In this document: piece after piece, positions 3,001 through 6,000 of the stretch
How positions within the stretch are numbered: position 1 is the first letter of the stretch
How the letters are laid out: every line of letters begins with the position of its first letter
IMG/VR virus record: IMGVR_UViG_2531839409_000002
DNA length: 9,661 nucleotides
From: a virus
Lineage: Monodnaviria; Loebvirae; Hofneiviricota; Faserviricetes; Tubulavirales; Inoviridae
Strand: one strand, 5' to 3'
Made by a program: the position numbers

Positions 3001-6000
3001 CTGTTTACTTAGGGAAAAACTCCCGTCGTTGGAGCCTGAAATTTTATTCAAAATATGATGAGCATACATCTGGCAAAAAAGGGCACCAGATGGCAGACGA
3101 ATTCGTTAAAGCTGGTTTACTGGACTGGTCAAAAGATAAATTACGCATTGAATTAACATTAAGAACAACTGAATTAATTGATTTGAATCTTACGCTTGGT
3201 AATAGCTGGAATATTGAGACGCCCAATAAATTATTCTCTGACTATGTAGGGAGAATAGAAATGAATCAAAATACTATATTAACTGATGAAAAAATAATTA
3301 ATCTCCCAAGAAAAATACAGTCTACATATTTATTGTGGAAGCAGGGCGCGAACATGAAAGAGATGTTACCGAAACCTACATTCTACCGACACCGTAAAGA
3401 ATTACTTTCTTTCGGAATAGATATTAACTTTTATTGTGAGTCACCGGATTCTAATAACGTTGTTCCGTTGGTTCGTACTCTTGAAGCCAAACCAGCCAAA
3501 ATTCCATCATGGGTTTATGAGAAAGGTTTAATTTTCGATTATAACCGTATTTCACATGCCAGTAACTGGCATTAAAGGAGAGTGATATGTCTAATTATGG
3601 TCTTTTTGTAAAAGGTAAAATGCTTGGTGCTCGCCAGCGTAATAAGGTCAATGGTCAGGGATACTATAATGAAATTGGTGTTGGCTTAGAGATTCCTGAT
3701 GGTTTTGGCGGCACTAAGCAAGACCAGATTATTATTCGTGTATCTCAGGCTCTTGTTAATGCCGGTGTAATGAATCAGGCAAATAATTTTATCGGTAAGT
3801 TAGTCCAGATACCTGTATATGTTCGCGTCTGGTCAATGGAGGGGAGGGAAGGAGTAACTTATAACATTTCATCAGATGGCGGCATTACTGAAATAAAAGG
3901 CTGATTATGGATACATCAGGTTTCGATATTCAGTTTGATAATCATATTCCTGAAAATGGTTACCGTATTGAAGGTTATTTATGTAATGCGAACAATGCAA
4001 AAGAATGTCAGGCAATAATGGTACGTTCTGAACCATTTCATCAAATTGATTATTCTGCAATGGGAAATTACTGGACATTAGGTTTTGGCTCTGTCCTGCT
4101 GCTCTGGCTTTTTTCTGTAGGTGTGGGACAGGTAATAAAGATGGTTCGTACTGCTTGAATGCGAACCTTTAAAATGTAATGGAGATAGAGTTATGTTTAA
4201 AAAAAACGTTAATTTTCTGGCTGTACCTGCATTAATGGCTGTTTCTGGCGCGACTTTCGCTGCAGAAGGAGCGGCATCAAGTGGTGTTGATTTATCGCCG
4301 CTGACGAACAGCATTGATTTCAGTACAGTTCTGGTTGCGATTATGGCCGTTGCTGCTTCACTGGTAACACTTTATGCCGGTGTCGCTGGCGTTCGCTGGG
4401 TATTGCGTACCGTTAAATCCGCATAAATTCATTATTCATGGGCGATGCAATATCGCCCGTTTTACTTGAGGTTATTATGGAGATTGAATTATGGAAATTG
4501 GGTTCCCTTTTATGGGGGATCGTCTCAGCTTATGTCGTTATTCTTGGGCTAAGAGGCTGACGGTTTATTCCTTTATTTTTTCCTTTCTCTGGGTTTCCTT
4601 TCCCCGATATTCATATTCATTTGTACCAGCAATTGCAGCAGTGGCTGCGCGGGCTGTTATTCCTAAAGTCGTTGGCCGGGTGCTTGTTCGTCGCTTTGCT
4701 GCCAATGATGCGATTTATACGGCATCACAGCTTACAGCAACCCGTGTTTTTGTTGGCCGCGCTGCGGCTAATGCTGCCGAATACTTGCCTGCTGCCTCAT
4801 CATACAAAATGAGCGGTGTTGCAACGTGGGCGGGTATTGCTGCTGCTGTATCATCTTTTGTTCCGTCTTCTTTGAGTTCATCTGACGGCTCGGTAATGGT
4901 AATGACTAACGGTAAAAAGATTTCCGATAATTTATATGAAGTAACGTACAGTGGTCAAAGTGGTGAAAGTAAGACGATAACCGTTAATTTTGAACCACAG
5001 GAATTAAGTCCGGTAATCCTTCATGTTAGTCGTAATAATGTGGATGCGGGTTCTCCAGTTGTAGGTGTTGAAACAGGATATTCCACGCCAGATAATGCAC
5101 TTTATTATTATCAGGATTCGAAAGAGCTAATTTATTACTATGGTGATAATCCAACTGAAATTGCCAGAAATTATCTTAATGACTATAACTCGCGTACTTA
5201 TACTGAAACACTAACGAATTTTGAACGCACTGTGACGAATAAAGTTGTCAACAGTAATGGAGATGTATCCTTTACTGAACAGAATTATAAGTTTACTTAT
5301 CCTTCCTCATTTTATGAAATACCTGAGATTACACACTTGTATAGCAACCCGGCCGCATCTTCATTTCCCGCAGGTATTCCCATGTATGAAAATGTAGCAG
5401 GGCTTCCCATGTATTACAGCGTTGCTTATTTAACAGCAGGAAAGCAATATCAGTATCACAACACGCCTTGTAAAACGACTAATCAGTCAAATGGTGGATA
5501 TTCGACGATTTGCGCCGTTCCTGAAAAAGAGGATTACACCGCAAAAGATATTGATGAAAAGAGTGAGCTTACTATCTGGACCAATACCAAATATAAAGCC
5601 ATGACGGAAGTACTGGAGGCCGGAAATATTGAGTCCATGATTGATTATCTGGAGTATCTTGATAGTGTTAGTGTATCGCCAGCACTTCTTGCCGACATGA
5701 TTAACGAGCTGTGGTCTGAAGCTGCCGTTAATGCCGATTATAACGGCTTACCGTTTAAAGAGGTTTCACCGGCTGAAGTAACTTCTGCGATGTCGGAACT
5801 TAGGCTATCTCCAACGTTATTAGATATGCTTTCACCTGTATCTGACAGTGCAGGGGCTGACGTCAATATTGATATTACCATTAATAACAACTCAGGATCT
5901 GACACTGGAAATAATGGCAATATAGATTTGGGAGAAGATCCCGGTGTAAAAGAGCCTGAGCTTGAAGAAACGCCAACGGCAAGAGATATTTTAACGCCAA

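Follow-up and report, generated by a model that had tools for sequence, protein, structure and literature searches.

Does gene II of the CUS-1/YpfPhi type of filamentous phage encode a second protein? The DNA analysed here, IMG/VR virus record IMGVR_UViG_2531839409_000002 (9661 bases; "the window" throughout), is a filamentous (inovirus) prophage genome of this type, and its gene II (2523..3575, + strand) encodes a replication protein, pII, of 350 amino acids. The original prediction held that an in-frame ATG at position 3261, preceded at good spacing by agggaga, opens a nested gene like gene X of the Ff phages and yields the C-terminal 104 residues of pII as a separate protein, pX. Reading frame, ribosome-binding strength and comparison of homologous genes all point the same way, and we consider it very probable that ATG 3261 is a real, conserved start for such a protein. 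The argument turns on the following features.

2503..2525, + strand: start of gene II itself, ATG 2523 with a weak Shine-Dalgarno (SD) sequence, GGGTG (anti-SD duplex −3.7 kcal/mol)
3225..3266, + strand: zone of near-zero synonymous variation, codons 235-248, spanning the internal SD, spacer and start codon
3248..3254, + strand: internal SD, aGGGAGa, formed by codons GGG (Gly243) and AGA (Arg244); the best SD site in gene II
3261..3575, + strand: predicted nested gene X (pX, 104 amino acids and a stop codon), in the gene II frame and matching the C-terminal 104 residues of pII exactly
3264..3336, + strand: A/T-rich, weakly folding stretch just 3' of the internal start
3279..3530, + strand: region encoding the G2P_X_C domain, residues 253-336 of pII and 7-90 of pX

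Gene II and its predicted internal start

By its domain content, pII is a rolling-circle replication initiator of the II/X family. The Pfam family Phage_CRI (PF05144) matches residues 1-231 (E = 1.2e-73) and G2P_X_C (PF05155) matches residues 253-336 (E = 3.6e-34); the TIGR01629 profile (rep_II_X, "phage/plasmid replication protein, II/X family") gives 259.6 bits, where the cut-off is 29. The protein is 100% identical to that encoded by the YpfPhi copy in Y. pestis (loci L004/L007), and its N-terminus, MIDW, is conserved, with Met1 present in 102 of 110 homologues. The ATG at 3261-3263 lies 738 bases, or 246 codons, into this reading frame and is codon 247; translation from it to the stop codon at 3573-3575 gives 104 amino acids, exactly the C-terminal product that had been proposed. 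In the context gta-GGG-AGA-ata-gaa-ATG the SD reads GGGAG, and a 7-nt spacer separates the GGAG core (3250-3253) from the start codon. GGG, AGA and ATA are minority codons in this phage, supplying 14% of Gly, 11% of Arg and 14% of Ile codons, respectively.

SD strength was calculated as the duplex energy with the 3' end of 16S rRNA (ACCUCCUUA). At −8.9 kcal/mol the internal SD is the strongest in gene II and the strongest among the 12 gene starts tested in the window, ahead of those of gene V (−8.7) and gene VI (−8.2) and far ahead of gene II's own (−3.7), which bears out the claim that the internal ribosome-binding site (RBS) is much the better of the two. Of 33 internal in-frame ATGs in eight + strand genes, a strong SD precedes only that at 3261, and no other does better than −5.3 kcal/mol. 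The local mRNA is also predicted to fold weakly. A 50-nt segment at 3261 (26% G+C) folds at −3.2 kcal/mol compared with a gene mean of −8.3 ± 3.8, ranking 26th of 338, and the least stable 50-nt folds in gene II, about −1 kcal/mol with 16-22% G+C, are centred around codons at 3270-3306. Folding at the gene II start is average (−8.3 kcal/mol). As a rough estimate, which disregards ribosomes reading through from upstream, the SD and folding energies together favour the internal site over the gene II start by about 10 kcal/mol.

Could the internal start instead be served by a transcript of its own? A sigma-70 consensus scan of 2300-3700 returned three sites in all, compared with 4.6 expected; the + strand has just two of them (2367-2394 and 2433-2461), both upstream of gene II, and nothing resembling a sigma-70 promoter between 2462 and 3700. 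We therefore rejected an internal promoter for a separate gene X transcript, of the kind annotated in phage IKe, since the scan is empty upstream of 3261 as far back as those two sites. With no promoter-like site inside gene II, the simplest reading is ribosome entry on the gene II mRNA.

Conservation across homologues

We aligned 110 full-length pII homologues, down to 46% identity, and examined the DNA of 160 loci, which collapsed to 72 lineage representatives once near-identical genes were merged. Met247 is invariant in all 110 proteins. The alignment contains 14 invariant columns, and Met247 is the sole one past residue 210, the remainder falling within the catalytic N-terminal domain; the other six internal Met positions of pII vary among homologues. 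At the DNA level an ATG occupies the aligned codon in 65 of the 72 representatives. Across the 72 lineages SD energy averages −5.7 kcal/mol at the aligned site and −1.85 at the other in-frame codons of these genes; in 48% of lineages the aligned site is among the best 5% within its gene, and in 66% among the best 10%.

Two entries among these searches call for separate comment. Some loci (L003, L006, L009, L010) with gene II sequences 86-100% identical to that of the window lie on contigs of about 4-25 kb in metagenome-assembled genomes (MAGs) labelled Ruminococcaceae, Aerococcus, Bacteroides and Nanosynbacter; these are almost certainly mis-binned phage contigs, and the labels do not name true hosts. 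In addition, five proteins of Klebsiella and other bacteria (P0009, P0010, P0030, P0031, P0034; 458-602 amino acids) fuse pII domains to a secretin (PF05144 with or without PF05155, plus PF00263), which suggests deleted prophage remnants in which gene II has been joined to gene IV.

The codons that form the SD carry a signal separable from the protein. Residues 243-244 vary among lineages (GR, KR, GK, GE, RK, RR, EK), and despite these changes the nucleotides at −13 to −7 stay purine-rich, as GGRG, GAGG or AGGA. Where residue 243 is Gly, its codon is GGR (GGG or GGA) in 30 of 33 lineages, and where residue 244 is Arg, its codon is AGR (AGA or AGG) in 22 of 27; for each, 7.3 would be expected from the same genes. 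This is an over-use of about 3-4-fold, with P < 5e-6 in each case by simulation. Likewise, when synonymous diversity was scored in 343 sliding 8-codon segments across 34 distinct YpfPhi/UPPhi-clade genes (nucleotide identity as low as 79%), the six lowest values, 0.014-0.037, all came from segments beginning at codons 235-241; the gene averages 0.274. Four different tests agree in the direction and the size of the effect. Thus the internal start and its RBS appear to be under nucleotide-level selection beyond what coding for pII needs, and the comparative data make the internal-start signal decisive. At the level of sequence, everything expected of a nested gene X is present: a host gene of the II/X family, an annotated gene X at codon 247 in the related phage I2-2, and a conserved ATG with its SD.

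The second-lowest synonymous diversity in gene II lies elsewhere, at codons 329-339 (3507-3539), which precede the start of gene V by 50-80 nt. In the IKe record putative promoter elements are annotated a comparable distance ahead of gene V, and the stretch in the window may be a gene V promoter or some other overlapping signal.

The predicted pX protein and competing readings

What would the internal start produce? G2P_X_C, formerly the "phage X" family, matches pX on its own with E = 3.4e-35, and pX begins six residues ahead of that domain. The family phrog_17464, of 100 positions, matches pX residues 1-100 end to end (E = 3.5e-52), and residue 1 aligns at position 299 of 407 in TIGR01629. 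In the AlphaFold model of pII (predicted local distance difference test score 84), Met247 belongs to a linker, extended and modelled with lower confidence, that joins helix 233-242, the last of the N-terminal domain, to helix 255-259; the modelled C-terminal domain is helical (255-259, 263-273, 278-281, 284-295). Since Met247 lies in the predicted inter-domain linker, initiation there would release a complete C-terminal domain, and pX would be the whole of that domain without the nuclease domain. Gene callers, working independently, place the first residue of some stand-alone X-domain proteins (P0131, P0135, P0138) at the homologous Met. The two products should be distinguishable after trypsin digestion, the predicted peptides being MNQNTILTDEK from the N-terminus of pX and IEMNQNTILTDEK from pII. 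A helix-turn-helix (HTH) look of residues 263-295 (pII numbering) is an impression; the weak HTH_psq match is that of M13 pX and, at E = 0.008, is below the cut-off.

A search for stand-alone X-domain genes gave mostly fragments. One relative, with about 48% identity in the X domain and found on contigs from two samples (L161, at 835-1869, and L162), has gene II called as two pieces, a 155-residue Phage_CRI fragment and a 94-residue G2P_X_C protein that starts at the homologous Met. This is probably a disrupted gene II, which may retain an intact X frame, and not an independent gene.

We propose that the mRNA encoding pII also recruits ribosomes at its internal SD (3248-3254) and that independent entry at 3248-3263 gives rise to pX alongside pII. 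The 104-residue product would be identical to the C-terminal domain of pII and would lack the N-terminal nuclease domain. Since the internal RBS is much stronger than that of gene II, pX is probably made in excess over pII. By analogy with Ff, initiation at 3261 would supply a regulator of replication: together with pII and the single-stranded DNA (ssDNA)-binding protein pV, pX may restrain replication of the double-stranded replicative form and let single strands accumulate. We hold this Ff-like role with less confidence than the existence of the start, because the phage integrates, has a repressor and encodes a pII distantly related to that of Ff.

Several observations weigh against a functional gene X at this site. 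We resampled synonymous codons with the phage's own codon usage while holding the pII protein fixed, and an SD of −8.9 kcal/mol or better arose at Met247 with P = 0.018 and at any of the seven internal Met codons of gene II with P = 0.148; the signal from the single sequence alone is thus suggestive, modestly beyond chance. The probability that the SD-to-start region is unpaired, computed in a 200-nt context, is ordinary (0.46 compared with 0.45). The 72 representatives are mutually related, and the codon-choice P values overstate their independence. A betaproteobacterial clade of the Methylophilus/Methylotenera type (L043, L045, L060, L066) keeps the ATG and has no SD (−0.1 to +2.4 kcal/mol), pointing either to SD-independent initiation or to a Met retained for some other reason, and seven distant lineages have no ATG at the aligned codon. 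Because of these lineages, Met247 may also be important to the protein, or pX may not be universal. Several of the ATG-less lineages do have an ATG 4-5 codons downstream, two of them with a moderate SD (L069, −6.6 kcal/mol; L072, −5.9 kcal/mol), so that the start appears to shift and not to vanish. Finally, the pX model has no significant structural match (Foldseek against PDB, best E = 3.1), and a sequence search found no PDB relative; we therefore assign pX no DNA-binding or other activity. Even in Ff the function of pX is described as poorly understood and its regulatory role as unclear (PMC7697814).

How else might the conserved tract be explained? If no separate protein were made, Met247 and the Gly-Arg pair would be kept for the linker of pII and the SD-like sequence would be a by-product of their codons. 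The motif G-R-[IL]-E-M is indeed fairly conserved in the protein (R244 in 89 and E246 in 84 of the 110 homologues), and both the retention of Met without an SD in some clades and the single-sequence chance estimates speak for this account. It leaves unexplained the preference for rare GGR and AGR codons, why synonymous diversity falls to its lowest in the gene at codons 235-248, and how differing residue pairs all place a purine tract equally far from the ATG. A structural role would also be unusual for a Met that is invariant and lies in an extended linker modelled at low confidence. We regard this explanation as highly improbable. Only slightly less improbable, in our judgement, is that the purine tract is another kind of nucleic-acid element, such as an inter-domain pause, an internal promoter, an operator or the partner in a hairpin. 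Synonymous constraint does start about 36 nt upstream of the ATG, beyond a minimal RBS, IKe is annotated with putative promoter elements upstream of gene X, and GGGAGA (3249-3254) pairs with UCUCCC (3301-3306) in the minimum-energy fold. However, the promoter scan described above speaks against a promoter, and a pause or an operator needs no invariant ATG 7 nt downstream; an operator would in any case be compatible with initiation at 3261, as pV of Ff reportedly represses both gene II and gene X. We also rejected an SD-sequestering GGGAGA/UCUCCC hairpin, which is not significant (z = −0.18) and lacks conservation in its 3' arm: CTC encodes Leu261 in 6 lineages compared with 6.4 expected, and the clade at 86% identity has CTG.

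Two further readings accept initiation at 3261 and differ in what follows from it. It is unlikely, though less so than the preceding accounts, that pX is made and yet is dispensable or serves some purpose other than an Ff-type control of replication. A lifestyle unlike that of Ff, with integration at dif and an HTH repressor gene (1905-2351, − strand), would fit such a divergence, as would the length of pII (350 residues compared with 410 in Ff), the 28% identity over the aligned C-terminal part, and a structure from which no function can be assigned. Conservation of the start over many hosts and lifestyles argues instead for a core replication role, as does the II-X-V module order shared with Ff, IKe and I2-2. 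More speculatively, the 42-nt constrained zone at 3225-3266, because it extends further upstream than a bare RBS, could act as an operator at the level of translation, with pV or pX itself setting the pX:pII ratio there and gene X serving as a governor of copy number or of compatibility with lysogeny; this is a conceivable extension that we doubt. The two RBS strengths are inverted, pX having −8.9 kcal/mol on open mRNA and pII having −3.7 kcal/mol on folded mRNA, and hence most of what the phage makes may be the domain without the nuclease, with hardly any initiator. If so, the scarcity of initiator would keep replication low enough for stable carriage, beyond a role as a switch late in infection.

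Our preferred reading, a conserved internal start that yields pX from the gene II message, has its direct value in annotation. YpfPhi/CUS-1 resides in Y. pestis and extraintestinal E. coli as a virulence-associated prophage. Gene II knock-outs, for example disruptions of YPO2274, remove pX too, and phenotypes ascribed to the initiator may therefore partly reflect loss of pX. The silent codon pair GGG AGA offers a handle for removing pX while pII stays intact. More broadly, the internal start is invariant over a large family of short (about 350-residue) II/X initiators from many Gammaproteobacteria and beyond, a distribution that suggests a core place for pX in the control of inovirus replication, and not a peculiarity of Ff.

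The prophage genome and related phages

The remaining landmarks of the window are as follows.

181-1284, − strand: open reading frame (ORF) of 367 amino acids, no Pfam match
1386-1808, − strand: ORF of 140 amino acids, no Pfam match
1905-2351, − strand: HTH repressor-like gene, from a domain match
2523-3575, + strand: gene II, from the ORF list and Pfam
3587-3904, + strand: gene V, ssDNA-binding protein of 105 amino acids (Pfam Putative_G5P, E = 1e-52; SD −8.7 kcal/mol)
downstream of gene V, + strand: small coat-type genes, then a long gene III-like ORF
6507-7532, + strand: gene I, Zot family
7532-8776, + strand: gene IV, secretin

Many E. coli chromosomes match the window at 99.5-100% identity, and a 9565-bp circular record labelled as a plasmid (NZ_CP128883.1, strain TUM14759) matches too. 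Bases 1-95 of the window recur at its end (9567-9661), so that the phage unit is a circle of 9566 bp; NZ_CP128883.1, whose length agrees with this unit, is probably the replicative form of the phage. The tandem YpfPhi copies of Y. pestis NCTC5923 are 99.7% identical to the window from 1825 onward and differ over 188-1824, a kind of difference between CUS-1 and YpfPhi that has already been described (PMC4266046). The two minus-strand ORFs of that segment fit the CUS-1-specific orf1 and orf1a, for which no function is assigned (PMC4266046).

The phage integrates at dif (PMC4266046). No E. coli dif site was found in the window at three or fewer mismatches. An imperfect dif-like site is present at 82-113 (and at the window end, 9648-9661), consisting of GGTGCGCATAA, the exact XerC arm of E. 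coli dif, a centre, TGTGCGACTCG, of 11 nt and not 6 nt, and TTATGTTGAAA, which matches 9 of 11 positions of the XerD arm; the window terminates exactly at ...GGTGCGCATAATGT. This is probably the attP or junction site that has been called imperfect for YpfPhi (PMC4266046). Adjoining it at 114-150, just past the end of the minus-strand 367-residue ORF, is a G+C-rich perfect inverted repeat, GGCCGCTGCG ... CGCAGCGGCC, followed by TCTTT, which could be a terminator or an origin or packaging hairpin. Two repeats in the divergent control region between the HTH repressor-like gene and gene II (2381-2500) are candidate operators: a 27-nt inverted repeat (2397-2423 / 2427-2453, 74% complementary), and a direct repeat, TGCTCA...GAC...ACAT (2398-2422 / 2476-2500), overlapping the two promoter-like sites (2367-2394 and 2433-2461). 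It is ambiguous where the gene III-like ORF (4491-6203) starts. ATG 4491, which gives the longest ORF, has a GGAG SD (−6.4 kcal/mol), and GTG 4641, the start used by RefSeq, lacks an SD (+0.9 kcal/mol); hydrophobic residues just ahead of GTG 4641 could be a putative signal sequence, removed if the RefSeq start is used. A scan of the whole window against Rfam gave no match at the gathering score.

Ff phages also nest gene XI in gene I. In gene I of the window (6507-7532) we found no in-frame ATG, GTG or TTG with an SD just before the membrane segment (residues ~217-240), so that no counterpart of gene XI is evident.

The closest characterised phage is I2-2 (Lineavirus I22, NC_001332; gene X NP_039616). 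A distant-mode blastn search of the gene II region against a phage collection gave no match; the protein-mode search found I2-2, whose pII is 58% identical over 344 residues. As in the window, its annotated gene X starts at codon 247, within the shared motif GRIEM, and runs in frame to the gene II stop; gene V follows directly, and G2P_X_C begins at pX residue 7 in both. The I2-2 codons GGG CGT give a weaker SD (GGGG, 9-nt spacer, −5.9 kcal/mol) than the GGG AGA of the window, and its pX has 98 residues compared with 104. To our knowledge, gene X of I2-2 was assigned by analogy, without experimental demonstration. Unlike the phage of the window, I2-2 does not integrate (PMC7307601).

The comparison with the Ff phages (M13/f1/fd; NP_510886) bears on function. 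In f1, pX is needed for the accumulation of ssDNA and restrains pII. Going by the titles as cited in PMC5405960, Fulford and Model reportedly showed in 1988 that f1 pX regulates phage DNA replication, and Yen and Webster are said to have described in 1982 the repression of gene II and gene X translation by pV in Ff. The function of pX and its translational control by pV are established for Ff only. Ff resembles the window in having an in-frame internal ATG in gene II with a strong SD of its own (in M13, GAGGGGGA, then the 5-nt spacer TTCAA, then ATG), in placing the X start in the linker before G2P_X_C so that pX is the C-terminal domain of pII, and in belonging to the TIGR01629 II/X family. 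The Ff gene X start, which we take to be gene II codon 300, adjoins TIGR01629 position 299. The X starts of M13 and IKe lie in the same linker, within 3 alignment columns of that of the window, and their pX proteins begin about 20 residues ahead of G2P_X_C, compared with 6 in the window and I2-2. For gene X the IKe record gives a putative ribosome-binding region only, with putative promoter elements annotated upstream. The order gene II - gene X - gene V is the same in the window, Ff, IKe and I2-2. Ff pII and pX, at 410 and 111 residues, are longer than those of the window, the Ff domain has an extra insert of about 22 residues, and the C-terminal regions share 28% identity; Ff neither integrates nor has a repressor, whereas the phage of the window does both. 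The claim that Ff phages make pX from an internal start in gene II, on which the original prediction leaned, is borne out by the literature (PMC7697814).

Closer relatives and existing annotation place the window in the same picture. UPPhi prophages of Enterobacterales (UPPhi901 type) have genes II and V more than 85% identical to those of YpfPhi, and their authors describe a gene X wholly contained in gene II (PMC7307601). Loci at 85-87% identity carry an identical tagggagaatagaaATG; the remainder of the UPPhi genome is related to I2-2 and IKe and not to YpfPhi/CUS-1 (PMC7307601). In YpfPhi, gene II is YPO2274 and is needed for phage production, and a review of that phage lists 13 ORFs and does not mention gene X (PMC4266046). 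The RefSeq E. coli record that we inspected in full (L002) has a single II/X-family coding sequence and no separate one for X, and the summaries of the other E. coli matches give only "phage/plasmid replication protein, II/X family". Thus the nested gene X described here is not a new kind of element; it is an unannotated member of the well-known Ff-type arrangement.

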